UHGV virus genome: UHGV-1442816
Strand: one strand, 5' to 3'
Length of the DNA: 28,902 nucleotides
Source of the DNA: a virus
Shown: piece after piece, positions 603-21,923 of the stretch
Layout of the letters: the number at the start of each line of letters is the position of its first letter
Position numbering within the stretch: the first letter of the stretch is position 1
The notes under the pieces: model-generated
The model's input: only the letters and a program-made list of their open reading frames with translations
The model's database searches: none
Told to the model about the DNA's origin: nothing
Position numbers and translations under genes: made by a program

Positions 603-1282
603 TAGAGTATTGTCCCCCATGCTCCAACATCGAACCCGCCGATGTATTCGTTATCCATATCAAACCCAAAGAATTTAGAGCCTTCTGACGGTGTTTCTAC
701 CGAAGGCGTTTCAACATCACCGGCCCATACGCCAGCTGATTTAACGGTGAGATAGCCCTGTTTGATAGCGGCGATCAGTTCGAGAGACACATCAGAAATA
801 TCAGTTTCAGGGAAAACCCAGACCGAAATCGTCATGTCCTGGTTGTCGACGATCTGCATCCTCAGGCCTGAGCCTGCGGTAGCAGCGTCAAGGATGGGAG
901 GCAGAGAGTCGTTCCGACCGTCCCAGTTGTTGATAGCGATTTTCGCTTTCAGAATGATGCGGTACGTCTCATCGCTTAGCGTCGTATAGCCAGAATCAGG
1001 ATCATATGGCCCTTGCCAGATGCCCTGGTCATACCCAAGCCCGTCAGTGTCCCAGCTGAAATAAACTCCGCTAATTGGCTGGCTGACTATGCGACTGCGT
1101 CCGATCCACAGACCGAGGATGTCGAGCTGTACACCGACAGCAGTATCGATATCGAAGGCTGTTATAAGCCCTGACATAGTGCTGGACACATCAATCAGCG
1201 GGCGGGTGCTCAGATCTATATGGTCAAAAAAGAGTGGCTTGGTAGCGTGGTAGTTAGTGATCAGTTCGGTGTATTTGCTCAT
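602..1282 (-). CDS. Baseplate wedge/tail protein (Mu gp48 / P2 gpI-like, DUF2612-like)
   Basis: 226-aa ORF immediately downstream of the baseplate J-like gene and upstream of the tail fibre gene, the conserved position for this family in Mu-like tail modules. Confidence 0.55.
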   Translation of the reverse strand: MSKYTELITNYHATKPLFFDHIDLSTRPLIDVSSTMSGLITAFDIDTAVGVQLDILGLWIGRSRIVSQPISGVYFSWDTDGLGYDQGIWQGPYDPDSGYTTLSDETYRIILKAKIAINNWDGRNDSLPPILDAATAGSGLRMQIVDNQDMTISVWVFPETDISDVSLELIAAIKQGYLTVKSAGVWAGDVETPSVETPSEGSKFFGFDMDNEYIGGFDVGAWGTIL

Positions 1283-2478
1283 GAGGTCACCGTGATACTG
1301 ATATTCGCGGTGCTACAGGACGCTGAAGCATCATAGGCAATATCAATGTTTGATGCCGATACGCTGCCAGACGACTTACCGATCAGCAGGTCGGTAATAT
1401 CGTAATAGCGGGCATTCCCGCCGCTCACAACGCCGAGGTTTGCCGGGGAATAAATACGGCTCAGCAGAACGTCGTCGCCAATTGTTAGGCCATTTATATA
1501 ATCGGCAACAGCCTGTTTAATCTGCTCGCCGATTTGAGAGGTATAGCCGGTAAAAACTTTCAGGGTAATGGCTACGAAAATTGGCACATAGGTAGAGCGC
1601 GAAAAACTGATGACGTGAGGATTACCATAAGTATCCGGCACTGTGACAGAAGTTTTACCGTAAGTTGCGGTTCCCTGCCCTTTATTCCCCCTGATGGTCT
1701 GGGCTATCTCGGTAACATCCCCTCCATCGACGATGGCGGAAATAGAGTGTGGCGGCAGCCCGTTGCTGTCGGTTGCCCCAGTGTCGTTCTCATATAGTTT
1801 GTGACGTGTCACGCCAGCAACATTAGCGATAGCACCGTCGACACCTTCAAACGGTGTGATCGATGGTAGCGCGACGCTTTGCCCCTGCCGAATGCGCAGC
1901 TCTGCGTCGGTTTCGGCTGGTGAACCGACAGTAGCCGCAACTGGATTGGTTACCGACACCCAACCTCGGGTCGGGGTGTTGATAGTGGTAATAGTCCCGG
2001 CCAGCGCCGCAACCGAACCGCTATTCGCACATGTGGCCGTCACCAGCACAGTACCATCAACGCCGATCGCCACACTCGCTGGAAAATTCCAGATAATGCC
2101 GTTTTTATCCCGTGCGGAGCCATTCGTGATAGTCGTGCCTGCCGTACCGGTTAACAGAAGGTCAGCAGTAGAGTTTGTCGCTACTTTTCGCGTGATCCCG
2201 TTAATTTTCACATTGTTGCTAAGCGCTGCGGCCTGCGCTGTCGTCGGTGAAAAAGAGTTGTAGATCTCGATAGCGGTATTGTTAGCGTCATGCACCGCAA
2301 GAGCCACCAGCGCGACCATTTGCCCATCTTTGCTGTCTGGTTCGAGGTAGGCATCACTACCGTAAATCTGCCTGAAATAGCTGGTCAGTGTATCAAGGAT
2401 TGTCTGGTAATCAGGCGCACTAATCCCCTGGGCGGTTACCGTTGCCGATAGCCCCAGCGTGTCGAGGTTCAAAGCCAT
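1279..2478 (-). CDS. Baseplate J-like protein (Mu gp47 / P2 gpJ family)
   Basis: 399-aa ORF; size and position between the gp25/W-like and wedge genes; start overlaps preceding stop. Confidence 0.75.
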   Translation of the reverse strand: MALNLDTLGLSATVTAQGISAPDYQTILDTLTSYFRQIYGSDAYLEPDSKDGQMVALVALAVHDANNTAIEIYNSFSPTTAQAAALSNNVKINGITRKVATNSTADLLLTGTAGTTITNGSARDKNGIIWNFPASVAIGVDGTVLVTATCANSGSVAALAGTITTINTPTRGWVSVTNPVAATVGSPAETDAELRIRQGQSVALPSITPFEGVDGAIANVAGVTRHKLYENDTGATDSNGLPPHSISAIVDGGDVTEIAQTIRGNKGQGTATYGKTSVTVPDTYGNPHVISFSRSTYVPIFVAITLKVFTGYTSQIGEQIKQAVADYINGLTIGDDVLLSRIYSPANLGVVSGGNARYYDITDLLIGKSSGSVSASNIDIAYDASASCSTANISITVTS

Positions 2479-2832
2479 TTATGCCTCGCTTGTTACAGTC
2501 GTCTGGCCGTAGATTGTGTCAATGGAGGAAGTGAAGGTGACGCGACGGCTGGTGCCGTCATAATTGGTATCGAAGGAAAGAATCGACAGAACGCCCGGTG
2601 TATCCTGTATGCGTTCGCGTATAGCCAGGATGTAGACATCTGATCGCTGCTTCCCAAGCACTGACTGAACATACGGCGTGCCTTCCGTCAGATCGAGAAA
2701 CCACTGACCGCGCCACAGCTCGAAACGGGTTTTTACGGCCTGGGCGACACATTCCGGACTGTCGATAAGGAAAGTATCGTCACCCTGGCCGAAAGTGTAA
2801 TCGCCTTCAGTATCTTCGCGACGGTATCGCAT
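2479..2832 (-). CDS. Baseplate protein, gpW/gp25-like (Mu gp46-like)
   Basis: 117-aa ORF abutting the spike gene upstream and the J-like gene downstream; typical size and position. Confidence 0.55.
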   Translation of the reverse strand: MRYRREDTEGDYTFGQGDDTFLIDSPECVAQAVKTRFELWRGQWFLDLTEGTPYVQSVLGKQRSDVYILAIRERIQDTPGVLSILSFDTNYDGTSRRVTFTSSIDTIYGQTTVTSEA

Positions 2833-3572
2833 TATTGCGGCCCTCCGGTAGTTCCCCCGCCAGTCTGTACTCCGCCATGTTTATGCGTGGCGACACTGAT
2901 ACCAGAAGCTGTTACGTCATTCGTTACCGTCACCGGCCCAAGCATCGTCGCAGTACCGCCGCTTTCGCCCATTCCCTGAGACAAGTTGCCATTAATCGTT
3001 ACGTTGCCGTTCAGCGTGATAGTCGGGGATGTGATTGTCGTTCCACCTTCAGCCGTAGCCGTGAGCTGGCCCGGTGTTTGAACGGTGATGTTATGTCCTG
3101 CGGCAACCTCTACGAACGCCGCACCATCATCGGTTCGCAGCTGCGCGGCGCTGGTACTGATACCGCTGATTTTCTGTGCTTGCGACTGCGGGCCAACGAT
3201 GGCGAACGCATCAGATAAGTCATGCTGTCGCGGATCGACGGTCTCCTGAACGCCGCCGCTCTGCCACCAGAAATCGATGCAACGGTCGGCAAAGATAAGC
3301 AGGCATTCGTCGCCTTCTTTTACCGGAAAAGTCAGCGTACAACCGCCGCCACGCGGGAAGATAACCGGCACATCCACCAGCGGTTTTAATTCGGTGGAGC
3401 CATCGCCAACGATACCGCGAAGCGCTACCTCTACCGTGCAGGTAACAGTATCAGGATCGAACGACTGAATGATGCCGGGCATCGCTACGCGCATCTGGGT
3501 AGACACCGAATCGGCAATGGCCTGCGCGGTCTGCTGCTCACCGCCGATCTGTGATTGAGTTGGAATTGGCAT
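2832..3572 (-). CDS. Baseplate spike / assembly protein V (Mu gp45 / P2 gpV-like)
   Basis: 246-aa ORF with glycine-rich C-terminus (GGVQTGGGTTGGPQ) and position between hub and gp25-like genes. Confidence 0.65.
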   Translation of the reverse strand: MPIPTQSQIGGEQQTAQAIADSVSTQMRVAMPGIIQSFDPDTVTCTVEVALRGIVGDGSTELKPLVDVPVIFPRGGGCTLTFPVKEGDECLLIFADRCIDFWWQSGGVQETVDPRQHDLSDAFAIVGPQSQAQKISGISTSAAQLRTDDGAAFVEVAAGHNITVQTPGQLTATAEGGTTITSPTITLNGNVTINGNLSQGMGESGGTATMLGPVTVTNDVTASGISVATHKHGGVQTGGGTTGGPQ

Positions 3573-3580
3573 AAAAACCC

Positions 3581-3608
3581 CATAAAAAAACCCGCTCGGT
3601 GGCGGGTT
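3581..3608 (-). terminator. Intrinsic terminator downstream of the moron genes
   Basis: Minus strand reads AACCCGC-CACCGA-GCGGGTT followed by TTTTTTT: 7-bp GC-rich stem, 6-nt loop, U-tract. Lies between the stop of the 106-aa moron ORF (3630) and the start of gene V (3572). Confidence 0.65.
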
Positions 3609-3629
3609 AAATTCATACTTGAAATGAAA

Positions 3630-3950
3630 CTATAGGTTCTTACTAAGCACAAGCTTACAATCTTCAGCGCTTAGACCAGTCATTTGAGCTGATTCAGGAT
3701 AGCTACAATACATTTTCACTCGACGAAACCCGAGCACTGCGAATTGATCACCTTTACTACTCATCAACTCTTTTTCGCTGCCACCCTCTCTGCGTGCAAA
3801 TCCAGCAGCCTCCATGCCAGAAGCTTTAGAAATCGCGGTGTGTATAGCAAGGTTATTATCCAAATCTGGATGTTTTACAAAAAAATCACTTAACGTTCCA
3901 GCGCAAACGGAGGTGGATAGCAGAAAAAGAAGAGATACAAATCCTTTCAT
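3630..3950 (-). CDS. Small secreted protein (moron), unknown function
   Basis: 106-aa ORF with hydrophobic N-terminal signal peptide (MKGFVSLLFLLSTSVCAG), two later Cys, AT-rich relative to flanking tail genes, followed by its own terminator. Confidence 0.55.
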   Translation of the reverse strand: MKGFVSLLFLLSTSVCAGTLSDFFVKHPDLDNNLAIHTAISKASGMEAAGFARREGGSEKELMSSKGDQFAVLGFRRVKMYCSYPESAQMTGLSAEDCKLVLSKNL

Positions 3951-3955
3951 TAATT

Positions 3956-4294
3956 TTATCCTTTTATTTTTACACAGTCATAAGTTGCATACTGACGTGG
4001 TGCATCCATATTTGCTTGCAGCCACTGAGCATTCAGGATTGCTTTACCATTACGGCCAATAAACTCCATTCCTACCCATCGCCCTGGTTGATTGGTCGCT
4101 AAGCGCCATTCAATTTTGACGTTGTTATAATCACCGTCATTTTTAAGAAATGTCACTTTTTGCGATTCAGGTTTAGCTCCGTTTACGCGAGCGAAACCAT
4201 CATCAGCCCAATGGATGTTGAAATCACCACACTGAGAATCAGCAATAGCCTGGAAAGAAAATAATGCTGCAATGGTAAAAATTACGAGTTTCAC
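3956..4294 (-). CDS. Small secreted/periplasmic protein (moron), unknown function
   Basis: ORF track gives 3956..4336; I place the start at the in-frame GTG at 4294..4292, giving (M)KLVIFTIAALFSFQAIA/DSQ..., a canonical signal peptide, with a GAGG-containing stretch upstream and no overlap with the hub gene stop at 4305. AT-rich. Confidence 0.55.
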   Translation of the reverse strand: MKLVIFTIAALFSFQAIADSQCGDFNIHWADDGFARVNGAKPESQKVTFLKNDGDYNNVKIEWRLATNQPGRWVGMEFIGRNGKAILNAQWLQANMDAPRQYATYDCVKIKG

Positions 4295-4304
4295 GTCCCG
4301 TACC

Positions 4305-5369
4305 TCAGTAGTTTGTTTTTTGCATAGCACCAGCATTAACTAAATCACGACTGCCACGCGCAAAACACATCAAATCCATGTACCACGCTTGACCTCTGGT
4401 GTCGCCAGTATAGTCGATAGCTTTGACGATATAAACGCCATCTGTCGCAATGCTGGCAGCCTGTGACGTCGTGCCGGTCAGCACACGGTTGCCGTTCTCT
4501 TCTGTTTCGGTGATACGCCCGGGCGACTGTGCGATTTCGCTATTGCCGAGCGCGGCGCGGTACACCGAAGCCTGATCGAGCTGGATAAGACCATTAATGC
4601 GGATGTTGGGGTTTATCAGGCACCGCACGTTTACGCCGCCGCCCATAGTCTGTTGCGGCATACCGATCAGGCCAGTATCAGCATTCAACACAATGGCTTC
4701 GTGAATATATTTATCCTCCGGCACCATCTGGACCTGACCATCCACCAGTTGCCATGTCGCTTTGCACTGCGCAGCAATATTATCCATCACGTTGCGGCTG
4801 GATGAGTAAATCGCGCGGCCACGAGGAAACACGGTATCAGGAAAATCGCCGGTAATGCCCTGTGTCACGCCGAACGCGTTGAAATCCTGCATCGTCGCCC
4901 GGTGCAGATCCGCAACGGTATAGCCAGCGGCAAGCGTGGTGATGGTGGTCGCATAGAGGAACGCTTCGTGATCACCAATGGCCTGAATCAACACCCAGGA
5001 ATCCGTAATGTTGTCCTTCCCGGTGACGGTGAAGCGAATATCACCGTCAAAAATCAGGCCGTAGTTCTGACCGTTCACCTGCCCTATCTGGTCTGGTGAA
5101 ATCTCCCGGGACACACCAACCTGGCTCGCATCAACATCCGGCACTATACCGTCATACCCGGCAATGATGCGAATTTTGGCAAACTCCTGCCCAAGTATCT
5201 TGTTCGTGGTATCGGTCGAAAGGTTGTAAATTTTCACGTTCGCCACGCGTGGCCAGCGTGTGTCTGCCCACTCGATCTGGAACGTGACCTTAAAGTCAGA
5301 CAGGGAAACGCCCTGCCCGTTCTGGTCCAACAGTTGCAGCTCAAAATGGCGCATCCAGTTAAGAGACAT
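4305..5369 (-). CDS. Baseplate hub protein (Mu gp44 / P2 gpD-like)
   Basis: 354-aa ORF in the conserved position after the tape measure and two small tail genes, before the spike gene. Confidence 0.55.
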   Translation of the reverse strand: MSLNWMRHFELQLLDQNGQGVSLSDFKVTFQIEWADTRWPRVANVKIYNLSTDTTNKILGQEFAKIRIIAGYDGIVPDVDASQVGVSREISPDQIGQVNGQNYGLIFDGDIRFTVTGKDNITDSWVLIQAIGDHEAFLYATTITTLAAGYTVADLHRATMQDFNAFGVTQGITGDFPDTVFPRGRAIYSSSRNVMDNIAAQCKATWQLVDGQVQMVPEDKYIHEAIVLNADTGLIGMPQQTMGGGVNVRCLINPNIRINGLIQLDQASVYRAALGNSEIAQSPGRITETEENGNRVLTGTTSQAASIATDGVYIVKAIDYTGDTRGQAWYMDLMCFARGSRDLVNAGAMQKTNY

Positions 5370-5371
5370 TT

Positions 5372-5677
5372 CTACTCCTGTACGAAAATGAGGTGGCTGT
5401 ATGTGCCGAGGTTGGTTTTGGTGGGCTCGTCTGGTGCGCCCTTATCGGTCGCCACCACCAGCGCGCCATCAATGCCAAGCTGTGGATATTGTCGTAATAG
5501 GTTCACGCCGGTCAGGAGAGGTACGCCAGAAAGAAGCGCAGCACCGCCGCTATCCATCACGTCCATAATCCAGCCAGCCGCATCACGCCAGATGATCCTG
5601 AGTGTATACGTGGTATTGCCCAGCAAAACGCGGAACTGCTGATTGTCAGGAGAAAGCGGTATTTCGTTAAACTGCAT
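5372..5677 (-). CDS. Tail/baseplate assembly protein, unknown function
   Basis: 101-aa ORF tightly packed between the 200-aa tail protein and the hub gene. Confidence 0.45.
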   Translation of the reverse strand: MQFNEIPLSPDNQQFRVLLGNTTYTLRIIWRDAAGWIMDVMDSGGAALLSGVPLLTGVNLLRQYPQLGIDGALVVATDKGAPDEPTKTNLGTYSHLIFVQE

Positions 5678-5678
5678 A

Positions 5679-6281
5679 TCATCCCCCGAATGCTGATGTA
5701 ACGCTTCCGCCCAGCTGGCTCAGCAAAGATTCGTTTGGCGGTGTAGTGGATTTCGTCCCGGAATTTTGCACCGCCGATGTGCTGACGCCATCCTGCATAT
5801 CTGATTTATCAGCAACGCTAACGCTCTGCGTTTGCGACATGATCACTTCACGCAGGGTAAGCGTGCAGTTCAGCACGTTCTCGCTGGTTTTGTCCGTTGT
5901 CACCTCGATGGCTCTCACCAGCATATTGCTGTACACCCGCTTCCCGGTCACCACATCGAACGGCACCCGGGAGGACTGGAGATCCAGCAGTTGCTGATAG
6001 GTCTCTTTCGGGCTCAGTCCGGCGCTGAGGCCGATTGAAGATGTATCAATGAAGTCCAGCAACGAACCGCCCCCAGCGAAGCCGCATTCCATTGTGACTT
6101 CGCTGGGGCGCTTATACGCATGATCGGCGATGAAACCCGAGGCGCTATTCGTTGTTGGCTTCTCCACCGGGTGCTCAGTAATTTCGAGCGCATCAGAATG
6201 CTTTTCGGAAACGACCACGCTGGGGATCAGCAGGCCAATTCGCCGTGATTGCTGGCGAAAAATCGCTGATAAAATATCCAT
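5679..6281 (-). CDS. Tail protein following tape measure (possibly DNA-circularisation N-domain-like)
   Basis: 200-aa ORF whose start overlaps the tape measure stop; position equivalent to Mu gp43 / P2 gpU. Confidence 0.4.
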   Translation of the reverse strand: MDILSAIFRQQSRRIGLLIPSVVVSEKHSDALEITEHPVEKPTTNSASGFIADHAYKRPSEVTMECGFAGGGSLLDFIDTSSIGLSAGLSPKETYQQLLDLQSSRVPFDVVTGKRVYSNMLVRAIEVTTDKTSENVLNCTLTLREVIMSQTQSVSVADKSDMQDGVSTSAVQNSGTKSTTPPNESLLSQLGGSVTSAFGG

Positions 6282-8548
6282 TATCTCGGTCCTGCGGGGA
6301 GTTGCTGGGTTAACTGTGAATTCACACCCTTTTGACGGTCAACAGTCAAACGGGCAGCTTCGCGAGGATCGGAAACGCCGTGGATGTTAATGTTCGTTTC
6401 CTGCTGAATCACCGGGGCGCTGGTGGGCATATTGCTCATTACTTTCGGAATGTAATTGCGCGTTTCCTGCGGCATTAGCCCCATTCCATAACGTTGAACG
6501 TTCCCGATTCCCCAGTTATATGATGCAAGTGCTTTGCTAAGGTCTCCGCCGTTCTGCCGCAATAGCTGGCTAAGGTACTTAGCGGCTGCCTGAGCTGACT
6601 TTTCCGGGTCGAACACATCGTTACCACGCAGGCCCATGTCTCGCGCCGTGCCATCCATGAACTGGAACAGCCCCTTTGCACCCGCGCCGGACATGGCGAA
6701 CTGGTTACCACCTGACTCGGTTATCGCCACACTTTTCAATAGACCAGCTGGAAGTTGATAAAGCGACTCAAGTTTATTGAACATTGGCCCCATCCAGTCG
6801 AGCAATACTTTGCCCTGGGCTGTGGCCTGTGGACGTTTGACTGATTGCGCAAACTGGGAGGGGTCACCCGATATATTTGGAGAGATTTCAGCAGCTCCAG
6901 CCGGGGAGAAAAATAAATTACCGATTTTGGCAATCCCGTCTGAGATTTTTTCAAGATAACCATTAGCAGCCTGCTGACGGTTTTTTATTTCATCTCTTTC
7001 ATGCGGGGCAATTTCATTACTACGAACATGCTGTTCCGCCCCGGGAATGTCAGGCTGAACATTATCGCCATAAACGACGCCATTGCTTTGCGCCTGACGA
7101 ATAATCTTACCTGGGCCACCATGCAGCCAATCCATCCATGCGGGCCATTCTCTTACCTCGCTAACATCTTTTCGCCCAAGGTCGGTTTTGATGCCAACCG
7201 TAGCAAGAGCATCACCAATGTTCCTTTTGGTATAGTCCAAAGATGATTTAGCACTGGCTTTTATGTTTTCACGATCTGAAACCAGGTAACCAGCATACGC
7301 TCCCCATAATTTAAGCCATGGAGGTATCGGAAGACCGGATATTTTTGCGAATGCTCCCAATACTTTTGTTACCCATACCCCAGCGATGAAAGTAGCCAAA
7401 ATTTCCAGCGAGTTCTGCCATCCACCAACAGAATCTTTCAGCCCCAGAAGCTTATCGCGCAGCCAGAGAATTGCCTTTTTCGCCTTTTCTATTGCAGGCT
7501 CCCACTTGGACCAGTCAATCAGGCTTTTACCGCCTTCTTTCCACGTCTGATAATCGTCATAGAGTAATCCGATCGCCAGAATCAGCGTGGTGATAATTCC
7601 AATCGGGGATTTCAGGAACGCAGAATTAAGCAGACGCCATGCGACAAGTAGAGCACCGAATATTTTCAGCAGATTTTTACTGCCATCGTCAAGACGCTTC
7701 CACCAGTCAATGACAGAGCCAGCGCCCTGTATGAGCCGCCACGCCATTCGCGTGAAGGCGTTCGCAAGCCAGATCACGCCTTTAATAACTCTGGTCAGCG
7801 TCTCTTCAATCTTCGGGAAGTTGTCGAGGATGCGCCGCCGCAGGCTGTCCAGCGAACCAGCAAGACCACCAGCGAGGTTTGAGCCGATCTTGTCCCGCAT
7901 AATGCCGAACAGCGACGTAAGCCCGCGCATGGACGTCATGAATTTATTGGACTGCACAGCCGCCTTATCAGCGTTGAACCCAGTCTTTTGCAGCATAGAC
8001 TGGTAATCGGCGGTAAAGCCATTCATGCCGCGCCGCATCGCCATCAGCGTGTTTTCATCGATGCCAAGCATCTGCGCGTATTGCTTCGCGCGGTAATACG
8101 GCATGTTGTTGAGCTTTTGCCCAACGCCAGTAAAGATGGCCGCAGTATCACGCATCTTTCCGCTGGCATCGCGAGTCTGGACGCCCAGGCGGTTCAGGAA
8201 GCCTTCCGCGCCCGGATTGCTACGCATGAAACCGGCCAGCCCTTCGAGGGAGGACATAGCCGACTCGGCGCTGGCACCGGTTTGCGATGCGGCGTATCCC
8301 AGCGCTTTGATGCCCTGGACACTGGCCCCCGTCCGCTGGGATGCCCAGTAAATTTTATCCAGACCGTTCGCGATCTGAGTGGTAAATCCGACAATGCTCA
8401 GCGCTGCGCCTTCCACCACCGCGCCGACCTTCAGAACGTTAGCTGTAACGCCTTTCAGCACGGCTTCAAACTTATTAGCGCCAGCCTGATCGATATCGAA
8501 TCCCAGCGAAACAAGGAAATCTTTAATCGTATCTGCGTTACCGCTCAT
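6281..8548 (-). CDS. Tail tape measure protein with C-terminal lytic transglycosylase (SLT-like) domain
   Basis: 755-aa ORF, alpha-helical Ala/Gly/Leu-rich body with hydrophobic segments, directly after the chaperone frameshift region; C-terminal motif ESGGNQFAMSGAGAKGLFQF resembles the SLT catalytic region. Confidence 0.8.
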   Translation of the reverse strand: MSGNADTIKDFLVSLGFDIDQAGANKFEAVLKGVTANVLKVGAVVEGAALSIVGFTTQIANGLDKIYWASQRTGASVQGIKALGYAASQTGASAESAMSSLEGLAGFMRSNPGAEGFLNRLGVQTRDASGKMRDTAAIFTGVGQKLNNMPYYRAKQYAQMLGIDENTLMAMRRGMNGFTADYQSMLQKTGFNADKAAVQSNKFMTSMRGLTSLFGIMRDKIGSNLAGGLAGSLDSLRRRILDNFPKIEETLTRVIKGVIWLANAFTRMAWRLIQGAGSVIDWWKRLDDGSKNLLKIFGALLVAWRLLNSAFLKSPIGIITTLILAIGLLYDDYQTWKEGGKSLIDWSKWEPAIEKAKKAILWLRDKLLGLKDSVGGWQNSLEILATFIAGVWVTKVLGAFAKISGLPIPPWLKLWGAYAGYLVSDRENIKASAKSSLDYTKRNIGDALATVGIKTDLGRKDVSEVREWPAWMDWLHGGPGKIIRQAQSNGVVYGDNVQPDIPGAEQHVRSNEIAPHERDEIKNRQQAANGYLEKISDGIAKIGNLFFSPAGAAEISPNISGDPSQFAQSVKRPQATAQGKVLLDWMGPMFNKLESLYQLPAGLLKSVAITESGGNQFAMSGAGAKGLFQFMDGTARDMGLRGNDVFDPEKSAQAAAKYLSQLLRQNGGDLSKALASYNWGIGNVQRYGMGLMPQETRNYIPKVMSNMPTSAPVIQQETNINIHGVSDPREAARLTVDRQKGVNSQLTQQLPAGPR

Positions 8549-9151
8549 TGGCCGCTCTCCATTTATCTACCCGGGCGTCGTTATCCTCGCGCATGTCGAG
8601 GTAGTCATTGAGAAGCGCGATGCGGCAAAGGTCTACCGCACCGCTGTTAAGGTCTTTCTGGTCAATATGGAAGGCAAGCGCCGGGCGAAGAATAAAATCT
8701 TCACCGCCCGGCAGGCTGTTGAAGGTTATTCCGCTAGCGGGGTGGGCGTCTCGCTGGTAGGGAGTCCTTGCAAAAAATTTCCCAGCGAGTCGGCGACCAC
8801 CCGCGCCACCAGTTGCAGCATGGTAAGCAGGTCGATATCGTCAAACGCCATTTCGCCATGCTGGCAGACCGGCACCCAGCCTTTCATGTGCTCGCGTGAA
8901 ACAACGGAAAGACAGGGGAACAGGATAGCGTCCACGTCGCCATCACTCAGATCGGACACAGCATTGGCAATCTTTGGCAGGATGGTAGCCATCGCGCCTT
9001 CGGTGTCTTTGCTGCTGATCTTCTCCTGAACGCTCCGGAAGTCAGAAACCATCCCGGCCAGAACCGGCAACAGCTTGCGGGACACCTTCAGCTGTTCGAA
9101 AACGCTGAGCTTTGCGGTGCGATATTTCACGCCTTTAATTTCGAATTCCAT
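8538..9151 (-). CDS. Tail assembly chaperone, predicted -1 frameshift fusion product (G-T / E-E' type)
   Basis: The -1 frame is open from the slippery heptamer TTTTTTG (minus strand, 8777..8771) to a TAA at 8540..8538, adding about 77 residues that overlap the tape measure start. Confidence 0.5.
8726..9151 (-). CDS. Tail assembly chaperone (zero-frame product)
   Basis: 141-aa ORF between the tail tube gene and the tape measure gene, the conserved chaperone position. Confidence 0.6.
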   Translation of the reverse strand: MEFEIKGVKYRTAKLSVFEQLKVSRKLLPVLAGMVSDFRSVQEKISSKDTEGAMATILPKIANAVSDLSDGDVDAILFPCLSVVSREHMKGWVPVCQHGEMAFDDIDLLTMLQLVARVVADSLGNFLQGLPTSETPTPLAE

Positions 9152-9154
9152 GCG

Positions 9155-9595
9155 TTAAAACTCCCCGAGAAGCTGGTCAATCTTGCCGCAGTCGAATACC
9201 CAGGCGACGGTTCCGCCCTCTTTAGCGTTATTGAAATCAGGCTGTTTCTGGAATGCACACGAACGCGCAGTAGAAATATCACCCGATGCCGTGTTGCGAA
9301 TGACGATCACGTTATTGCCCCAGGTGGCAGAGGACTGGCTTTGCGCGTTATACGCCAGAGACAGCTTCTTGTTAACCGGGGAGGTTTTCAGCAGCGTCAC
9401 CGTAATGGTGCCTGACTTATCGGCGTGCAGGCTGTGCATCACTTCGCCATCGGCACCGATGGTCATGGTGTTTTTGTTGCCGCCCATGGTCTGGGTAATA
9501 CCTTCCTCAGAGTTGGCAGAACCCTGACCAAGATCGATAACGCCGGTCGGCCCGGTGAGCGACGCGGTTACATCGAGAAAAGAATAAGTTGCCAT
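9155..9595 (-). CDS. Tail tube protein (contractile tail)
   Basis: 146-aa ORF immediately downstream of the sheath gene. Confidence 0.7.
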   Translation of the reverse strand: MATYSFLDVTASLTGPTGVIDLGQGSANSEEGITQTMGGNKNTMTIGADGEVMHSLHADKSGTITVTLLKTSPVNKKLSLAYNAQSQSSATWGNNVIVIRNTASGDISTARSCAFQKQPDFNNAKEGGTVAWVFDCGKIDQLLGEF

Positions 9596-9605
9596 TTATC
9601 GCTCC

Positions 9606-10766
9606 TTAGCGAACCACGTTGATCTGCACATCGGCATAATGAACTGCGCCAGCCAGCTTACAAGCCACCTGGATTAACGGCGCTTTGCGTGCTTCTCGGT
9701 CAGCCTGTGCTTGCTCGGAAAGAGGTTGCGCATACACGTAATAACCTTTTGTCAGCGTATCGCCGGAATTCAGTTGCCCGATAGGGCCACCATTCCACAC
9801 GCCAGCCGCTACCAGACCGTTCGTGACGGACTGATCCATGGACTGTTCAACGTTGGAAAGCAGACGGGTCACACCGGCATCAGTCTGCGGAATTTTGGTG
9901 GTGCTGGTGTAAAGCAGGTTATAGAGGTTGGTCTGAACGTAGTTCTGCAACCAGTCGAGCCCGTGGCGCTCGTCGAAGAAGTCACCGTTCGCCATGACAC
10001 CCTGTTGCAGGATCGCCGTGTCGTTGGCGTAGTACACGAACACGTTCGCATTCTTCGCATCCACAGCCGCCGCCTGTCCTACCGTCAGCGTTTCGTAGGT
10101 TACGCTCGGTTCCTGTTTGAATTTCAGGGTAATGGTGGTATTGCTGCCGTTGAAATTGACAGTAAACGCGCGACCGAAAGCTGAAACCGCCGCATAAGGG
10201 CTGCTGGTGGAATATTGAATAAAGGTACGGGAATACTTACCGGCCTTTAATTTAGACGCAACATCGGTCGTCGAAGTCGTGCTGATGATCTCAGCGTCGG
10301 CTGACGTTACCCCGAAAATGCGGCTCAGGCTGGACGCTTCGATGAGTTTAGCAACCTCAATCACGTCGTCAGCATCAAGCACATCATCGCCATCAGCAAC
10401 ATCATCAGCGACAACCAGCCCATACCAGTTGGTATACTGCAGGCAGGCATTAACAGCTTGCACGATGGTTTCCACGCTTCCACCTTCGGAAGAGGTCAGC
10501 GTCTTCGCCCAGCGGCCAACATAAACCTGCGTCGGCTTCGGCGACTGGCTGAAGAAAACCTGCGCCGCTTCATATTCCGGGCTGTCGACTCCGAAGTCCT
10601 CGCCAATGTCCTCAACGGACGCATAAAGGCGAACGCGCTCCTGCACCGGAATGACAGTGGAAGAACCGAGGATCAGCAGTGCGCCGAAGTTACGACCAGT
10701 AGCCGCTTTCGGCGAGATGATCACATCAACGTTTACAACGTTGGATACAGGTAAGCCCTGCGTCAT
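9606..10766 (-). CDS. Tail sheath protein
   Basis: 386-aa ORF; size and position before the tube gene; sequence character resembles the myovirus sheath family. Confidence 0.8.
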
Positions 10767-10769
10767 AGT

Positions 10770-11375
10770 TTATTCTCCAAAAAAGGTGACTGGCGCTTCC
10801 ACCAGCGATTTAATGCCGTACTCGCGCACGACCTTCCGGCGCAGGCGCACCGTCATGTCGTAGCGGCGAACCCATTGCTGGTTGATAAGTTCGGGGAAAG
10901 GGGTCAGGCCGGTATAGTCTCCCAGGGACAAACCGAGCGCATTCAGCTCAGCATTGTTTTGCGGGACAGATATGCCATCACGAAAACGGGACGCATAAGA
11001 CATACCAGCCGGGCCATAGAACGACGCCATGCACTCGAACGTTTCATGCCGCCAGAGCTGTGCGCCCTCGTCGGTCTGATTGGTGAATGCAGGACTGTTA
11101 TCAATGGGCCACCCGGTAACGCCGAACGCACACCAGTTCGTTTCAACTGACGGTAGTGATGGCTGTTCTTTCTGCCAGCGCGGGCGAACCATCCCCGCAG
11201 GCAAGCCGGAAACATTGCGCATCCATCGGCTTAGCAGCCTGTCGAGCGCTTCGTCATAATCAGGATCGCCGCTGGTGGGTGTCAGCCAGCCGCGCTCTGT
11301 GCTGGTGTTATTGCTCAACGGGAGTTCCCCCATCAAACGGCAGTAATTCGCAATGTGCCTGGACAAAGCCAGCAC
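10770..11375 (-). CDS. Head-tail joining / tail completion protein, unknown function
   Basis: 201-aa ORF between head genes and sheath; true start may be an internal Met because the 5' end overlaps the preceding ORF. Confidence 0.4.
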   Translation of the reverse strand: MLALSRHIANYCRLMGELPLSNNTSTERGWLTPTSGDPDYDEALDRLLSRWMRNVSGLPAGMVRPRWQKEQPSLPSVETNWCAFGVTGWPIDNSPAFTNQTDEGAQLWRHETFECMASFYGPAGMSYASRFRDGISVPQNNAELNALGLSLGDYTGLTPFPELINQQWVRRYDMTVRLRRKVVREYGIKSLVEAPVTFFGE

Positions 11376-11697
11376 CGTAAGCCGTGTACGGGTCGACGAA
11401 TGTCACACGATAATCACGGTTCTGGTACGTCACGATATCGGCATCACGGCCAGTCTGCCCCTGCGTCAGCCGCTCAGTTGTCACGATGAGAATCGCGCCA
11501 CTGATAACCTGGCCGGACTGCATACGTCGGTTTTCCAGGGAGCGGTCAACAGTAACATCCCCGGCAAACTGCTTTTTAACTTCACTGTCGCTGCCGATCC
11601 CGTCCTCATCCACCGTTTGCACTCGGCGTGTTACCCACAGGTTGAAGTCGCAAAAATCGGGGTCAAAAAGTACGTCCGTCACATCAAGATTCGGCAT
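11308..11697 (-). CDS. Head-tail joining protein, unknown function
   Basis: 129-aa ORF in the structural operon. Confidence 0.4.
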   Translation of the reverse strand: MPNLDVTDVLFDPDFCDFNLWVTRRVQTVDEDGIGSDSEVKKQFAGDVTVDRSLENRRMQSGQVISGAILIVTTERLTQGQTGRDADIVTYQNRDYRVTFVDPYTAYGAGFVQAHCELLPFDGGTPVEQ

Positions 11698-12238
11698 CTT
11701 TATCCCTCACAACATGGGTAATGGCTCTGCGATATTGCCCGGTGTCAATTAGCGGTTTCACCAGGTCGGTTCCGGGAGACTCGCCAGCAGCGCGCCGCGC
11801 AAGTTCCGCTTTTGCCCCTTTGCGGCCACGGCGTGCACGGGCTTCAACGGTGCTATCAGCAAGCGGTGTAAAGCCGGTAATGGTCATGTAACGCCTGACG
11901 CCATTAGCGGCCAGCGTTCCGGCGCGGTTGAGCGCTCTTTCCGCACCCGCCGCATTACCATCAAGCGCAGCCTGCGCTGCTGCTTTTAGCTGCGGCACTG
12001 TCTGTTCTTCTACCGATTTAACACCGGGGATCAGGTGTGGTCGTGGGGGGATGTTTTGCGCCGGTGAGCCGTATTCATTGACGTAGCCGATCCCCGCATT
12101 ACCAAACGGAACATCTTCACGCTCGCTGTCTTCTTCCGGGATGCCCACCAGCACTTCTTTTTTACTGATGGATTTGAGCGCATCCAGGATGGCCTGAGCG
12201 TTATCCACCCTCGTTGTTACACCGCTTTTGAAACTCAT
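11684..12238 (-). CDS. Virion morphogenesis / neck protein, unknown function
   Basis: 184-aa ORF in the structural operon; start overlaps preceding stop. Confidence 0.4.
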
Positions 12239-12642
12239 AGCTGGCGACCGCCCGCACCGAACATCGTGATCAGCTGATAAAATTCAGCGCCATATCGGGT
12301 GTTATTCCAGAAGCCTGCGTCAGGGTTTAGCGTCGCGCTGGTGTCATAGCTGACGCTTACCTTGTCAACGGACTTGGAGGACTGAACACCATTGGTTGAG
12401 CCACCCGGGCCGCCGACGAGCATTGCCCGGCTATCTGCCGCCCAGAGCGTCATGTAGTGAGCCACGAACAACTCGACAAAGTACGGAAACAACTCTTTGC
12501 CGGTGACGTTTTCGCTCAGCAGCACATCAGCCAGATTCAGACGAAACTGGATTTGTGCTTCGGGATATTTGGCAGGGTCAGCAAACTGTGGAAAGTCGCG
12601 CCGAAAATCACTTACTGTTGGCAGGCTTTGATTCTTTGGCAT
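12235..12642 (-). CDS. Head completion / connector protein, unknown function
   Basis: ORF track gives 12235..12741; the first 30-odd codons overlap the upstream gene, so I favour the internal Met at about 12642. Confidence 0.4.
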
Positions 12643-12997
12643 CTTTCGCCCCATTACCGCCAGTCTGGGCGGCAGCAATCTGCGCTTGCAGGCTGTCGTT
12701 CTGCTCTTGCAGCTTGAGCAGCGCTTCTCGCAGATCGGCAATCAGCTGATCTTTATCGATAATCTGCTTATCTTTGTCGGCAATCTGAGCTTGCAGGCTG
12801 TCGATAATGGGTTGCAGATCATCGGTGTCGCTAATCACGCTTTCGGAAAGCTCGGAGTGCGCCTGGGTGAACCAGTGCGACGCGACCTCTTCCGGTACGT
12901 TATGCCGTCCCCGGCCAAACTCCCTTTTTGACTGATCGCCGAGCGTCAGCGTAAACGGGGTGTGAACATGGATGGTAACCAGCTTTTCTTTCGCCAT
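12608..12997 (-). CDS. Structural protein with C-terminal coiled-coil repeats, unknown function
   Basis: 129-aa ORF directly after the capsid gene and a stem-loop; C-terminus has heptad-like Q/D/K/L repeats mirrored by DNA repeats. Confidence 0.45.
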
Positions 12998-13038
12998 TTT
13001 CAGTTCCCTTCTGGCCCCTTTCGGGGCCGTTCTGGTTA

Positions 13039-13398
13039 TCAGATACCGTCCACGTAGGACAGGGTTTCTTTGTACACTGGCTCAACCGCACCGAGCTTGC
13101 CGTAGTAGGTCGCAATCTGATACAGACCGCGATACTGGACAGGAACGCTCTGCAACGGCACCAGCGGATAGCGCACGTATTTCTTGTCGTTGGTGTAGGC
13201 GATCATACGGTCTTTACCGCCAACCCCACGCCCTTTCAGCCATTTGACCGCTTTGATTTCAAGCGGAACGCCGTTCTGGTGGAAAGCGATAGTGTTCACA
13301 GCCAGATAGGTCAGCAGTGACTGGTTACCCGCTTCGGAAACCTTACGGCTCGCCAGCAGTGAATACTGCTCTGGCGGAATGCGCAGATCAGAAGGCAC
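13039..13398 (-). pseudogene. Major capsid protein, C-terminal part, downstream of an in-frame TAG
   Basis: Same frame as 13420..13980 and separated from it only by TAG at 13422..13420 plus seven sense codons. No Shine-Dalgarno sequence before the GTG at 13398. Confidence 0.55.
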
Positions 13399-13419
13399 GA
13401 TGGAATAACCGGATGCTGC

Positions 13420-13980
13420 CTAGGCATTAGACAGAATGCTGTTCACGCTATCGAGGATCTCGTCGTTGGTTGAGTTCGCCCAGGTCTTCGGCGCGTTGTT
13501 CAGCGTCACACCGACGAGGTTTGCCAGACCTTTCAGGCCGAGTGCGTCATCACCGATGTAAACCTGCTCGTCGTTGTCCATCTGCCATTTGAGCTGCATC
13601 CCGTCGTACTTCTGGGTATCAATCGGGCGGCCTACCTGCTGAGCAGCTGCCAGCTCTACAACGGTCCAGCCCAGTTCCATACCCCAGAGGTTCAGTGGAT
13701 TGCCGTCTTTGCTGATATCCACGTTCACGCCAGCAATAGCGGTGGAGTCTTTGCCTACCCAGTTTTTACCATTCGGATTTGCACCAGTACCCGCAGCGGC
13801 GAAGCTGGTATTCGTCCAGCTGGAAATGTCATCTGCGATAGACACGTCTTCACGCAGTTGAATATCTCGGGTCCAGGTGTACCCCACCAGAGGCAGGTTC
13901 AGCGTCTGGTCGAGTCGCTCCAGCTCCCCGATGAGAAAGGCACCAGAGCTATCAACGGTTGCCTGATCAAAAGTAATCAT
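13420..13980 (-). CDS. Major capsid protein, N-terminal part, ending at an in-frame amber codon
   Basis: 186-aa ORF in the position expected for the major capsid gene (after scaffold and a 167-aa head protein). The two parts together give about 313 aa, a typical capsid size. Confidence 0.55.
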   Translation of the reverse strand: MITFDQATVDSSGAFLIGELERLDQTLNLPLVGYTWTRDIQLREDVSIADDISSWTNTSFAAAGTGANPNGKNWVGKDSTAIAGVNVDISKDGNPLNLWGMELGWTVVELAAAQQVGRPIDTQKYDGMQLKWQMDNDEQVYIGDDALGLKGLANLVGVTLNNAPKTWANSTNDEILDSVNSILSNA

Positions 13981-13991
13981 TCGTCTGTTCC

Positions 13992-14495
13992 TTAAATCTT
14001 CCAGGAGATTTCTGCATTGCCGTTAGCGTCACCGGCCCCTGTGAATTCGGCGTTGGTCAGCGCCACGTTTTTGCCACTGACGGACGTGGACATGAAGCCG
14101 CCCAGCGGCACTTTGATGGATTCATCAGTGGAGACGACAACGTATACCGGGTCGCCTTTTTTGATGGTGCTGGCATCAAAATCAGAACCGAGATTAACGG
14201 TCATGTAGCCACGCTTCATGGCGTCACCCGGGAAGTTCTTATCCGTCCCCACCTGGCGAACCATGTCTGGCTGCGATGTGGTCGGATACGGACGAACGTA
14301 GATCCCCTTCACCTTGTCGGCGGTGTCACCGTCCGCCAGCGGCACGAAAAAGCCGTCAGCGTCATATTTGCCAGCCAGACCATAGGCAGCGAAGGCGTTA
14401 GCGGATTTAAGGATCACCGGCTCGACGGTTAAATCCTGCGGGCGAGAGATAGCCCCGGCAATGCCAACAGGCATCCGGTACAAATATGCAGTCAT
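13992..14495 (-). CDS. Head protein (possible decoration or accessory head protein)
   Basis: 167-aa ORF between scaffold/protease and major capsid genes. Confidence 0.45.
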   Translation of the reverse strand: MTAYLYRMPVGIAGAISRPQDLTVEPVILKSANAFAAYGLAGKYDADGFFVPLADGDTADKVKGIYVRPYPTTSQPDMVRQVGTDKNFPGDAMKRGYMTVNLGSDFDASTIKKGDPVYVVVSTDESIKVPLGGFMSTSVSGKNVALTNAEFTGAGDANGNAEISWKI

Positions 14496-14499
14496 TGGA

Positions 14500-15732: not shown

Positions 15733-15746
15733 GGTTTACCTGCGAT

Positions 15747-19920: not shown

Positions 19921-19976
19921 GAATATTTCCTCTTAATGATATTATCGAAGCCCCTCAGTGAAGAGCTTCTGTAATG

Positions 19977-20162
19977 TCAGTCCCGGACGAACGTAACCTT
20001 TGTGGTTATCATTCGCCGTACAAGGCGCGTCGCTTCGCGTTGCATTTCATCAATTACTTTTGGCGTCAGCGGCTGACGCGCATATTTGCGCTCAATCTCT
20101 GCAAAAATCCCGTTCAGCACCTCGCTGTCTGGTGGGATAACTTCAACGTTTAATCGTGCCAT
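19977..20162 (-). CDS. Hypothetical protein
   Basis: 61-aa ORF between the spanin genes and the small terminase gene; no recognisable features. Confidence 0.3.
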   Translation of the reverse strand: MARLNVEVIPPDSEVLNGIFAEIERKYARQPLTPKVIDEMQREATRLVRRMITTKVTFVRD

Positions 20163-21860: not shown

Positions 21861-21923
21861 TATAAAAAATCCCGAAACCGTTATGCAGGCTCTAACTATT
21901 ACCTGCGAACTGTTTCGGGATTG
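21861..21923 (-). terminator. tR' intrinsic terminator (end of 6S RNA)
   Basis: Minus strand reads AATCCCGAAACAGTTCGCAGGTAATAGTTAGAGCCTGCATAACGGTTTCGGGATTTTTTATA: long hairpin plus U-tract, matching my recollection of lambda tR'. Confidence 0.75.

Follow-up and report, generated by a model that had tools for sequence, protein, structure and literature searches.

The window analysed here, a stretch of 28,902 nucleotides (UHGV virus genome UHGV-1442816), is an E. coli prophage whose tail genes follow one another in the order sheath, tube, chaperone and tape measure. The features discussed below are collected in Table 1. The product of the chaperone gene matched Pfam family PF21822 (Phage_TAC_15) with 114.9 bits (cut-off 22; E=4.4e-33) over 121 of the 127 profile positions. 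In 37 of 5,426 complete E. coli genomes a match covers 80% or more of a 1-kb query spanning the locus, and 119 have any match; the annotation problem discussed below concerns at least those 37 and many other Enterobacterales.

Table 1. Coordinates of genes, signals and domains at the chaperone locus
Feature	Position	Strand	Basis
Tail tube gene (KPP10_Orf10/DUF3277 family), directly upstream of the chaperone	9155..9595	-	Pfam E=5.8e-60; RefSeq annotation
Tail assembly chaperone ORF, 0-frame (TAC-N, 141 aa; lambda gpG equivalent)	8726..9151	-	Phage_TAC_15 match
GGGTGG, possible SD-like stimulator	8797..8802	-	anti-SD affinity; frozen codons
Composite slip region GGGAAATTTTTTG (13-mer, three consecutive in-phase X_XXY_YYZ heptamers)	8771..8783	-	sequence; conservation
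G_GGA_AAT, third in-phase heptamer	8777..8783	-	in 29/31 close loci
A_AAT_TTT (P site Asn AAT, A site Phe TTT), most likely slip heptamer	8774..8780	-	xxT_TTT conservation; E. coli rules
T_TTT_TTG, in phase, possibly secondary slip site	8771..8777	-	kept in close relatives
-1 extension, 78 codons and TAA stop	8538..8774	-	translation
RefSeq/PGAP CDS 'DUF6889 family protein' (WP_084832721.1), ATA start	8538..8729	-	judged annotation artefact
DUF6889 (PF21829) domain, compact helical C-terminal domain of the fusion	8553..8660	-	Pfam, phrog, AF2
Tape measure protein gene (755 aa, C-terminal SLT domain)	6281..8548	-	SLT E=1.2e-24; PhageMin_Tail weak

An open -1 frame between the chaperone and tape measure genes

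A preliminary description of this DNA had placed the end of the chaperone ORF at 8726, with a 177-nt apparent gap before the tape measure gene. Both coordinates hold on the minus strand, the 0-frame stop being TAA 8728..8726 and the gap spanning 8725..8549. Equally correct was its statement that the -1 frame is open for about 77 codons to a TAA at 8540..8538 that overlaps the start of the tape measure gene; from GCA (8771..8769) the count is 77. Counted from further upstream, this frame stays open for 100 codons (8840..8541). Its stop overlaps the tape measure start by 11 nt, and the tape measure ATG (8548..8546) and ribosome binding site GGAGAG (8560..8555) both lie within the end of the extension. 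The chaperone and -1 ORFs thus overlap one another and together occupy the space between the tube and tape measure genes. The first ATG, GTG or TTG of the -1 ORF is an ATG 18 codons before its end, and no canonical start is kept for this ORF across 31 related loci. A +1 frameshift was ruled out, since the +1 frame has stops across the whole interval.

Stops occur at a frequency of 0.067 in the -1 frames of the window's long ORFs, so that 100 open codons in a row have P ~1e-3, more than chance would provide. The window's ORFs of at least 100 aa contain 39 in-phase heptamers, about one per 300 codons, and only five of these enter a -1 frame that stays open for 77 codons or more. Three of the five are those of the chaperone. 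The other two were discarded as candidates: for one, the -1 frame is merely the next gene (Dit-like, after the tape measure), and the other lies inside a spurious ORF within the DUF2213 gene.

The -1 frame is coding. Its peptide matched Pfam PF21829 (DUF6889) with 44.5 bits (cut-off 23.9; E=1.3e-11) and phrog_4364 with E=2.4e-17, and its alignment is conserved from ARTP[RY] onward. Within the chaperone, the third codon position of the 0 frame is the most variable (entropy 1.08 vs 0.53 and 0.33), while past the 0-frame stop it is the third position of the -1 frame that varies most (1.16 vs 0.54 and 0.48). Judged by this pattern of variation, the -1 frame is under purifying selection.

Among database proteins, three carry both domains (P0001, P0110 and P0004), and only P0004, which has T7 in place of T6, is clean, although a homopolymer error could account for it too. 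P0001 and P0110 were not accepted as proof of an in-frame fusion, since the frame is switched elsewhere in them and they look like noisy assemblies. In Logan contig L113, with T7 for T6, TAC_15 and DUF6889 are joined in one 213-aa ORF with the junction LGNFFA. This contig encodes the exact predicted fusion; its T7 may be a homopolymer sequencing error and not a viable variant. The AF2 model of the L113 fusion has two confident domains separated by a disordered linker that starts at the junction, the C-terminal domain following the linker with a pLDDT of ~90. The N-terminal domain is structurally similar to the tail assembly chaperone fold (HK97 TAC, PDB 2OB9). A PDB sequence search with the fusion found no relative.

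Conservation of the extension and of the slip site

In 30 of 31 loci from enterobacteria (54-100% aa identity), the -1 ORF runs 62-66 codons past the 0-frame stop. The sole exception, L098, has a short extension explained by a 5-nt duplication and was not taken as a counter-example. Nine distant phages (27-42% identity) all have the -1 ORF, extending 55-75 codons past the stop and containing the LPGGEDW...DIALMND domain. In eight of the nine, its end falls just short of where the following gene is annotated to start, or 3-10 nt beyond that point; in AbTJ it extends 58 nt beyond it. In every one of the 31 close loci and nine distant phages, the -1 frame is open over the whole stretch between the slip site and the 0-frame stop. 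As the preliminary description pointed out, a frameshift would have been contradicted by homologues that had no extension and began independently in this interval. No canonical start is conserved among the homologues, and the starts given in databases are scattered over at least six positions inside the conserved peptide.

The 0-frame codons at the site are GGA (8782-8780), AAT (8779-8777), TTT (8776-8774) and TTG (8773-8771), and the heptamers precede the 0-frame stop by 16-18 codons. All 31 close loci have AAATTTTTT in phase. Averaged over the gene, synonymous codon entropy is 1.05; it drops to 0.42 at codons 121-128, where GGA, AAT and TTT are each used in 31 of 31 loci and TTG in 30 of 31. 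Codons on the 3' side of the slip site are frozen as well (CAA 28/28, GAA 23/23, CTC 29/30), which can be explained by dual coding alone.

The preliminary description had named T_TTT_TTG (8777..8771) as the slippery heptamer. Its X_XXY_YYZ phase is borne out by the 0-frame codons, and it is kept in 30 of the 31 close relatives, the remaining one having TTTTTTA. In distant relatives, however, it is lost, the TTG position reading ATC, ATT or ATG, whereas 13 of 14 lineages, some with identities as low as 27%, retain the xxT_TTT homologous to A_AAT_TTT. In E. coli, the best slip motifs permit cognate re-pairing in the A site and R_RR.U_UU.Y has been named shift-prone, while UUG is a 'heterogeneous' A-site codon, weaker than UUU (PMC4066793). 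A_AAU_UUU permits such cognate re-pairing, UUU to UUU. T_TTT_TTG is therefore probably not the main site, because TTG is replaced where xxT_TTT is kept and UUG is the poorer A-site codon; from the comparative data and the published E. coli rules, A_AAT_TTT is most likely the main slip heptamer. At the one homologous codon pair, the family presents A_AAT_TTT, C_CCT_TTT, G_GGT_TTT, T_TTT_TTT and bare T_TTT, a series that could be used to calibrate frameshift predictors. The third heptamer, G_GGA_AAT, is also found in Acinetobacter and Bordetella phages.

A downstream stem-loop or pseudoknot stimulating the slip, a feature raised in the preliminary description, did not emerge in any conserved form from single-sequence, consensus or shuffle-controlled folds. 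The single-sequence fold downstream of the slip site was not unusually stable (window z=-1.49). The RNAalifold consensus of 25 homologues reached -10 kcal/mol with a covariation term of -0.08, giving no conserved structure, and shuffle-controlled downstream folds of 31 homologues had a mean z of -0.28, with z below -2 in 3/31. One pairing, GGGA/UCCC around the slip site, is uninformative because it is invariant. Scanning 8300..9300 against Rfam gave no match above threshold; the only hit in that interval, a sub-threshold one to ssnA on the opposite strand, was judged to be chance.

Upstream, GGGTGG is a candidate element that may help slippage. It lies on the 5' side of the slip region, 16 nt from A_AAT_TTT and 13 nt from G_GGA_AAT, and the anti-SD duplex of the 9-mer 8805..8797 (-7.1 kcal/mol) falls in the top 2% within the gene. 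CGG (28/29) and GTG (30/31) are synonymously frozen here while neighbouring codons vary, an observation confounded by the conserved R-V-V residues. A similar SD-like element is present in most lineages and is missing in 2 of the 18 scored (Bordetella L115 was left out). In E. coli, heptamers without stimulators raise frameshifting only ~2- to 10-fold over no-motif controls, from a background of ~0.05% (PMC4066793). The slippage rate at this site could thus be very low, given that unstimulated heptamers are weak in E. coli and that no conserved downstream stimulator was found.

Ribosomal slippage and the alternatives to it

We consider a lambda G/GT-type -1 programmed ribosomal frameshift in the tail assembly chaperone the probable explanation of the locus (probability about 0.85). 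The preliminary description had likened the locus to the lambda G/GT and P2 E/E' arrangements, and that reading is supported by the gene order, the startless -1 ORF with its Pfam domain, selection and conservation, the frozen codons and the curated homologues.

The same fusion (...LGNFFART...) could arise by transcriptional slippage, if RNA polymerase stuttered on T6 (8777..8772) and added an extra U to some transcripts, which we regard as improbable. Inserting one T does yield exactly the fused ORF, and nothing is better conserved among close relatives than the T-run, which is T6 in 79 of 80 viral contigs and in each of the 31 genome and phage loci analysed. Bacterial RNA polymerase, however, usually slips to an appreciable extent at runs of ~8-9 or more, and T6 falls below that. 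Distant relatives in Burkholderia and Acinetobacter with T4 only (CCCTTTTATC, AAATTTTATT) also retain the -1 ORF, and in these relatives polymerase slippage is implausible while an X_XXT_TTT ribosomal slip remains workable. The long conserved homopolymer expected of programmed transcriptional slippage is absent, the run being T6 here and T4 in those relatives. Homopolymer A/T runs are known slippage sites (PMC5009743), and UUUUUUU is under-represented in E. coli genes, possibly owing to slippage (PMC4066793); yet the flanking GGGAAA is synonymously frozen and in heptamer phase, neither of which polymerase slippage needs.

Very improbable, in our estimate, is a separate small gene, that is, a stand-alone DUF6889 protein of ~63 aa starting at ATA 8729..8727 by termination-reinitiation at the chaperone stop. 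PGAP calls a CDS here, and DUF6889 is a family of its own in Pfam and NCBIfam. Because the ATA and the TAA stop overlap, the geometry would permit coupling, and some distant phages have annotated ORFs in the interval (BgManors32 gp60 from the chaperone stop, ZHS_22 18 nt after the stop). Against this, no canonical start is conserved, the first ATG/GTG/TTG here lying 18 codons from the end of the -1 ORF; the PGAP start codon differs among relatives (ATA or CTG); and of the scattered database starts some fall within the conserved LPGGED/ILRP block. Throughout the 31 close loci and nine distant phages the open frame reaches back to the slip site, and the peptide there starts with the conserved ARTP[RY]. 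A separate gene would also leave the synonymous freezing of GGA AAT TTT TTG unexplained.

That the 177-nt gap is non-coding, and the open frame and heptamers coincidental, is refuted, common though single in-phase heptamers are in the window, by the improbability of 100 open codons, the Pfam match in the -1 frame, the codon-phase purifying selection, and conservation across genera down to 27% identity.

The evidence points to DUF6889 being the C-terminal domain that frameshifting adds to Phage_TAC_15 chaperones, and we judge the separate-gene call of RefSeq to be mistaken. Stand-alone database calls of the -1 ORF range from 42 to 75 aa, and in some records the ORF is misnamed "lytic transglycosylase". 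Curated GenBank records join both frames in Klebsiella phage Mulock and Burkholderia phage Magia. The paper announcing the Mulock genome is silent on the frameshift, and our literature search found no paper naming DUF6889. The practical value lies in an annotation fix, by which the DUF6889 CDS would become the chaperone C-terminal domain in RefSeq/PGAP, Pfam and NCBIfam.

Predicted products and comparison with known systems

Under the ribosomal frameshift, most ribosomes would read the 0 frame to the TAA at 8728..8726, giving the chaperone of 141 aa (TAC-N, the counterpart of lambda gpG). A minority would slip back by one nucleotide on GGGAAATTTTTTG (8783..8771), most likely when the P site holds tRNA-Asn paired to AAT and the A site tRNA-Phe paired to TTT, and would then read 78 codons of the -1 frame to TAA 8540..8538. 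The predicted product consists of the first 126 codons of TAC-N and the extension, a 204-aa fusion ...VVADSLGNF-FARTPYQRD... (TAC-NC, like lambda gpGT), laid out as the chaperone domain, a disordered linker of ~20 residues and the small helical DUF6889 domain. Candidate junction peptides are VVADSLGNFFAR and VVADSLGNFLAR, the latter obtainable only from a ribosomal slip on T_TTT_TTG. The slip would rely on the slippery string itself, perhaps helped by the GGGTGG 13-16 nt upstream, and would involve no downstream RNA structure. By analogy with lambda, both forms would coat the tape measure protein, and recruitment of the tube protein would fall to the rare C-terminal domain, so that tube and sheath polymerise to the length of the tape measure; neither form would stay in the virion.

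A further idea, which we offer tentatively and think doubtful, is that the 13-mer may act as a stacked 'slip ramp', in which two or three overlapping heptamers each offer ribosomes an opportunity to slip and, with GGGTGG as the sole stimulator and perhaps a minor share of polymerase stuttering on T6, set the TAC-N:TAC-NC ratio without RNA structure. If this were true, the family would be a compact natural system for studying how the effects of tandem slip sites combine in E. coli.

This kind of frameshift is already known. It is the ordinary, long-known lambda G/GT arrangement; tail chaperone frameshifts are among the most widespread recoding events and have already been curated in phages of the same family.

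Sites of the dnaX/IS911/IS3 type have RNA structure, either a stem-loop or a pseudoknot, beginning 5-9 nt on the 3' side of the slip site, for which nothing conserved was found here, and an SD-like element ~10-14 nt 5' of it, for which the GGGTGG 13-16 nt upstream, confounded by conserved residues, is a possible candidate.

The long and short chaperones of lambda are made in a ratio of about 1:30. In the lambda G/GT system (Levin, Hendrix & Casjens 1993; Xu, Hendrix & Duda 2004, 2013, 2014; summarised in PMC5009743), the N-domain binds the tape measure and the C-domain the tube protein, and both products are needed and are absent from the virion. The locus resembles lambda in having overlapping ORFs between the major tail (tube) and tape measure genes, a second ORF without a start codon or ribosome binding site of its own, an N-terminal chaperone domain common to both products, a rare (here predicted) long form that gains a small C-terminal domain, and no evident downstream RNA structure. 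Lambda slips on G_GGA_AAG, from which the G_GGA_AAT here differs by one base. Unlike lambda, the families are Phage_TAC_15 and DUF6889, with no detectable similarity to gpG/gpT; the phage is a myovirus whose contractile tail is of the KPP10/E217/SEN34 type; the likely slip pair is Asn-Phe (A_AAT_TTT) instead of Gly-Lys; and three heptamers are stacked in a 13-mer.

The myoviruses P2 (E/E') and Mu (gp41/gp42) likewise have a chaperone pair between the tube and tape measure genes and a -1 shift, although the protein families differ and the searches made detected no similarity. They are contractile-tail examples of the chaperone frameshift, and the efficiency in P2 is reported to be 2- to 3-fold above that of lambda (PMC5009743).

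In Pakpunavirus / Vandenendeviridae and Andersonviridae, which have a related KPP10-type tail, a conserved -1 chaperone frameshift with an invariant GTTTTT motif has been reported (PMC12846349, 2025). They are also myoviruses with the same tail Pfam families (KPP10_Orf10 tube, DUF3383/E217_gp31 sheath), in which a short TAC-N and a long TAC-NC arise by a -1 poly-T slip near the 3' end of TAC-N, and annotations routinely treat the downstream ORF, wrongly, as a hypothetical gene in its own right. In contrast to the present locus, they are lytic phages of Pseudomonas and Acinetobacter with larger genomes, and their GTTTTT motif provides no canonical triple heptamer.

Klebsiella phage Mulock (MN098327; CPT_Mulock_014/015) and Burkholderia phage Magia (gp15/gp16, 'tape measure chaperone frameshift product') belong to the same family as the chaperone described here. 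Mulock shares 60.6% aa identity and an identical GGGAAATTTTTTG, whereas Magia shares 42% over the C-terminal part and has C_CCT_TTT at the homologous codons. Both have the same gene order and a -1 ORF running 63 codons past the 0-frame stop and ending in the tape measure start, and their records annotate the (predicted) join that the RefSeq annotation of the prophage does not.

Organisation of the chaperone locus

The window is an E. coli prophage carrying lambdoid early and lysis genes together with a SEN34/Mulock-like contractile tail module, and the nucleotide region around the chaperone locus is 97.7% identical to Citrobacter phage Omnitron. The mosaic consists of a SEN34/Mulock-type myovirus head and tail module (1..21600) and, at about 21800..28902, a lambdoid nin region, Q-like antiterminator, RusA, holin/endolysin and replication genes.

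The chaperone end and the tape measure ATG are separated by 177 nt on the minus strand. The preliminary description had placed in this interval a -1 frame entered at T_TTT_TTG, and all of its coordinates (ORF, gap, heptamer phase, -1 frame and TAA overlap) were found to be correct on rechecking. T_TTT_TTG lies in X_XXY_YYZ phase, because the 0-frame codons close to the chaperone end read CTG GGA AAT TTT TTG CAA. Two adjoining in-phase heptamers, G_GGA_AAT and A_AAT_TTT, had been overlooked, and the three combined form a 13-mer slippery element, GGGAAATTTTTTG. The 77 codons following the slip, which overlap the tape measure start by 11 nt, are likewise part of a longer -1 opening of 100 codons that had not been noticed. 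The interval was said to be missed by the ORF track, yet RefSeq does have a CDS there. No ATG, GTG or TTG was found on scanning the -1 ORF until 18 codons before its end.

Features of the chaperone locus and of other heptamers considered in the window
Feature	Position	Strand	Remarks
Sheath			First in gene order; DUF3383, E=4.9e-104
Tube	9155..9595		Second in order; KPP10_Orf10, E=5.8e-60
Chaperone ORF, 141 aa	9151..8726	minus	Third in order; Pfam Phage_TAC_15, E=4.4e-33; phrog_1688 'tail assembly chaperone', E=4e-57
Open -1 stretch, 100 codons	8840..8541	minus
SD-like CGCGGGTGG	8797..8805	minus	Spans GGGTGG
GGGTGG	8802..8797	minus
G_GGA_AAT	8783..8777	minus	In phase; adjoins T_TTT_TTG stretch
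A_AAT_TTT	8780..8774	minus	In phase
T_TTT_TTG	8777..8771	minus
-1 frame after slip, 77 codons	GCA (8771..8769) to TAA (8540..8538)	minus
RefSeq CDS 'DUF6889 family protein', WP_084832721.1	8729..8538	minus	Start codon ATA
Tape measure ORF, 755 aa	8548..6281 (ATG 8548..8546)	minus	Fourth in order; C-terminal SLT domain
A_AAG_GGT	6326..6332	minus	In tape measure gene
Dit-like baseplate gene	6281..5679
Baseplate proteins			Last in order; Dit-like, Pam3 gp18 and E217 gp41 types
A_AAA_AAG	14862..14868	minus	In phase with 101-aa ORF
101-aa ORF	15071..14766
DUF2213 gene	14500..15732

The -1 frames of the window's long ORFs contain stop codons at a frequency of 0.067, so that 100 open -1 codons would be expected by chance with P ~1e-3. 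Among 39 in-phase heptamers in window ORFs of at least 100 aa, five are followed by at least 77 open codons in the -1 frame, and three of these five belong to the chaperone. The other two of the five were rejected as candidates. A_AAG_GGT, in phase 16 codons ahead of the tape measure stop, shifts reading into the frame of the Dit-like gene that follows, which is open throughout; slippage there would join the tape measure protein to the Dit-like protein, and the open frame is probably a mere consequence of the ATGA gene overlap. The 101-aa ORF containing A_AAA_AAG is spurious, since it lies inside the DUF2213 gene in another frame.

Conservation of the putative slip site and choice of heptamer

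The alignment comprised 31 distinct homologous loci drawn from a wide range of enterobacterial genera, with 54-100% chaperone identity. In-phase AAATTTTTT was present in all 31 and the leading GGG in 29, and TTTTTTA replaced TTTTTTG in one. The -1 ORF reached 62-66 codons beyond the 0-frame stop in 30/31 loci. The exception, from Enterobacter sp. R1(2018) (L098), has a 5-nt duplication, CCGGC, ~100 nt 3' of the slip site; its -1 ORF ends 23 codons beyond the 0-frame stop, with the remaining domain recognisable out of frame, and the duplication stems either from prophage decay or from faulty assembly. T6 was present in 79 of 80 near-identical viral contigs. Synonymous codon entropy, computed among sequences having the same amino acid, averaged 1.05 over the gene as compared to 0.42 at codons 121-128. 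Gly124 (GGA), Asn125 (AAT) and Phe126 (TTT) were each invariant in codon (31/31), Leu127 was TTG in 30/31 and Gln128 was CAA in 28/28. Such low synonymous entropy and the frozen codons 124-128 point to selection on the nucleotides themselves.

Each of nine distant phages (27-42% chaperone identity), from Burkholderia, Bordetella, Ralstonia, Acinetobacter, Providencia and Edwardsiella hosts, retains a -1 ORF that extends 55-75 codons beyond the stop and encodes the same domain. It ends 3-10 nt beyond the next gene's annotated start, or just short of the start, in eight of them, and 58 nt beyond it in AbTJ. By protein-guided codon alignment, the homologous slip codons were AAT TTT in the window, Mulock, SEN34 and the Acinetobacter phages, CCT TTT in Magia and BgManors32, TCT TTT in E192a, GAT TTT in Edwardsiella ZHS, GGT TTT in Ralstonia PY059, AGT TTT in Providencia PSTCR3 and, shifted one codon later, ACT TTC in Bordetella IFTN9. 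The TTG of T_TTT_TTG is replaced by ATC, ATT or ATG in distant relatives. Retention of xxT TTT while TTG changes argues for an in-phase T_TTT that puts the Phe codon in the A site as the conserved core, the window's version being A_AAT_TTT. Systematic measurements in E. coli point the same way: the best motifs permit cognate A-site re-pairing (ZZN to ZZZ), UUY and AAR shift most readily in the A site, R_RR.U_UU.Y is named shift-prone and 'heterogeneous' codons, e.g. UUG and AAU, are poorer (PMC4066793). Thus T_TTT_TTG, the heptamer originally named, is present in phase, but A_AAT_TTT is most likely the slip heptamer within the 13-mer, since distant relatives do without TTG; T_TTT_TTG and G_GGA_AAT may contribute too in the window's own clade. 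A less likely reading is a slip ramp, in which the stacked, overlapping in-phase heptamers would each allow slippage.

Slippage at G_GGA_AAT or A_AAT_TTT predicts the junction ...LGNFFART... and the tryptic peptide VVADSLGNFFAR, and slippage at T_TTT_TTG predicts ...LGNFLART... and VVADSLGNFLAR. Transcriptional slippage on T6 would produce an identical protein, a T7 transcript also giving VVADSLGNFFAR, but is disfavoured because relatives with only T4 retain the arrangement and the adjacent GGGAAA, in phase with the heptamers, is frozen too.

For -1 frameshifting at the heptamers, a downstream stem-loop or pseudoknot had been suggested, and no conserved one was found. The window's own fold was unremarkable (z=-1.49), a consensus fold built from 25 homologues scored -10 kcal/mol (covariation term -0.08), the 70 nt downstream averaged z=-0.28 over 31 homologues (3/31 below -2), and Rfam returned no match at the locus. 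Upstream, GGGTGG is located 13 nt from G_GGA_AAT and 16 nt from A_AAT_TTT, and its anti-SD affinity is in the top 2% within the gene. Most lineages carry comparable G-rich elements 7-18 nt upstream, e.g. GGGAGG in the Ralstonia phage. The GGGTGG codons are synonymously frozen (CGG 28/29, GTG 30/31) and the adjoining Val and Ala codons vary. This suggests GGGTGG as a candidate SD-like stimulator of the dnaX/IS911 kind, though it overlaps conserved R-V-V residues and is missing from two lineages.

The predicted fusion product and the annotation of DUF6889

The -1 translation matched Pfam DUF6889 at 44.5 bits (cut-off 23.9, E=1.3e-11) and phrog_4364 (E=2.4e-17). In the 31 loci, the 0-frame third position varies most 5' of the slip site (entropy 1.08 vs 0.53 and 0.33), and the -1-frame third position varies most 3' of the 0-frame stop (1.16 vs 0.54 and 0.48). 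The extension peptides align right after the slip site, as ARTP[RY]...LPGGEDYILRP...DLxDIALMNDYL...KWR. Judged by these patterns, the -1 frame is coding.

The predicted fusion in the window has 204 aa, 126 from the 0 frame and 78 from the -1 frame. One homologous locus (L113, a 10.9 kb Logan contig from SRR23924998, whose cluster has 16 member sequences) has T7 rather than T6 at the slip site, position about 1896, and encodes Phage_TAC_15 and DUF6889 within a single 213-aa ORF with the junction LGNFFA. Its T7 is either a genuine variant producing the long form only or a homopolymer sequencing error. Two further database 'fusions' were discarded as noisy assemblies. The AlphaFold2 model of the L113 fusion (mean pLDDT 85.5) comprises a confident N-domain (1-136), a disordered linker (139-155) that starts where the two frames join, and a C-domain that is compact and helical (156-213, pLDDT ~90).

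An independent small DUF6889 gene, as annotated by PGAP, is disfavoured: conservation of a canonical start is lacking, and PGAP was forced onto ATA. Stand-alone DUF6889 database entries (P0121-P0148) also speak against it, being 42-75 aa long with at least six different starts within one conserved peptide, some of which fall within the conserved LPGGED/ILRP block. The name 'lytic transglycosylase' given to several entries seems to come from the adjoining tape measure gene. In Edwardsiella phage vB_EpM_ZHS (L116, 1678..), the gene after the chaperone pair, at the tape measure position, is annotated 'portal protein', probably an error of the deposited record. The DUF6889 match, the codon-position signal and conservation in the 31 loci and nine distant phages rule out a non-coding gap. 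The comparisons support DUF6889 being the frameshift-encoded C-terminal domain of Phage_TAC_15 chaperones, with no gene of its own, and the useful outcome is an annotation correction for DUF6889.

Relation to known systems

The G/GT-type -1 frameshift proposed in the preliminary description is supported, at the level of sequence, by gene order, the DUF6889 match, the codon signal and slip-site conservation. The arrangement is that of lambda G/GT, where -1 frameshifting at a low level yields a pair of products in a critical ratio; the domain common to both binds the tape measure, the C-terminal domain of the rare form recruits tube protein, and both products are needed for normal-length tails (PMC5009743). 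Such an arrangement is already on record: GenBank entries for Klebsiella phage Mulock, with an identical 13-mer, and for Burkholderia phage Magia carry a 'tape measure chaperone frameshift product' at the homologous locus; the Mulock paper makes no mention of a frameshift. According to a 2025 paper, the chaperone gene in Pakpunavirus and Andersonviridae has a conserved -1 frameshift on a poly-T motif, and there too the downstream part is habitually annotated as a separate hypothetical gene (PMC12846349).
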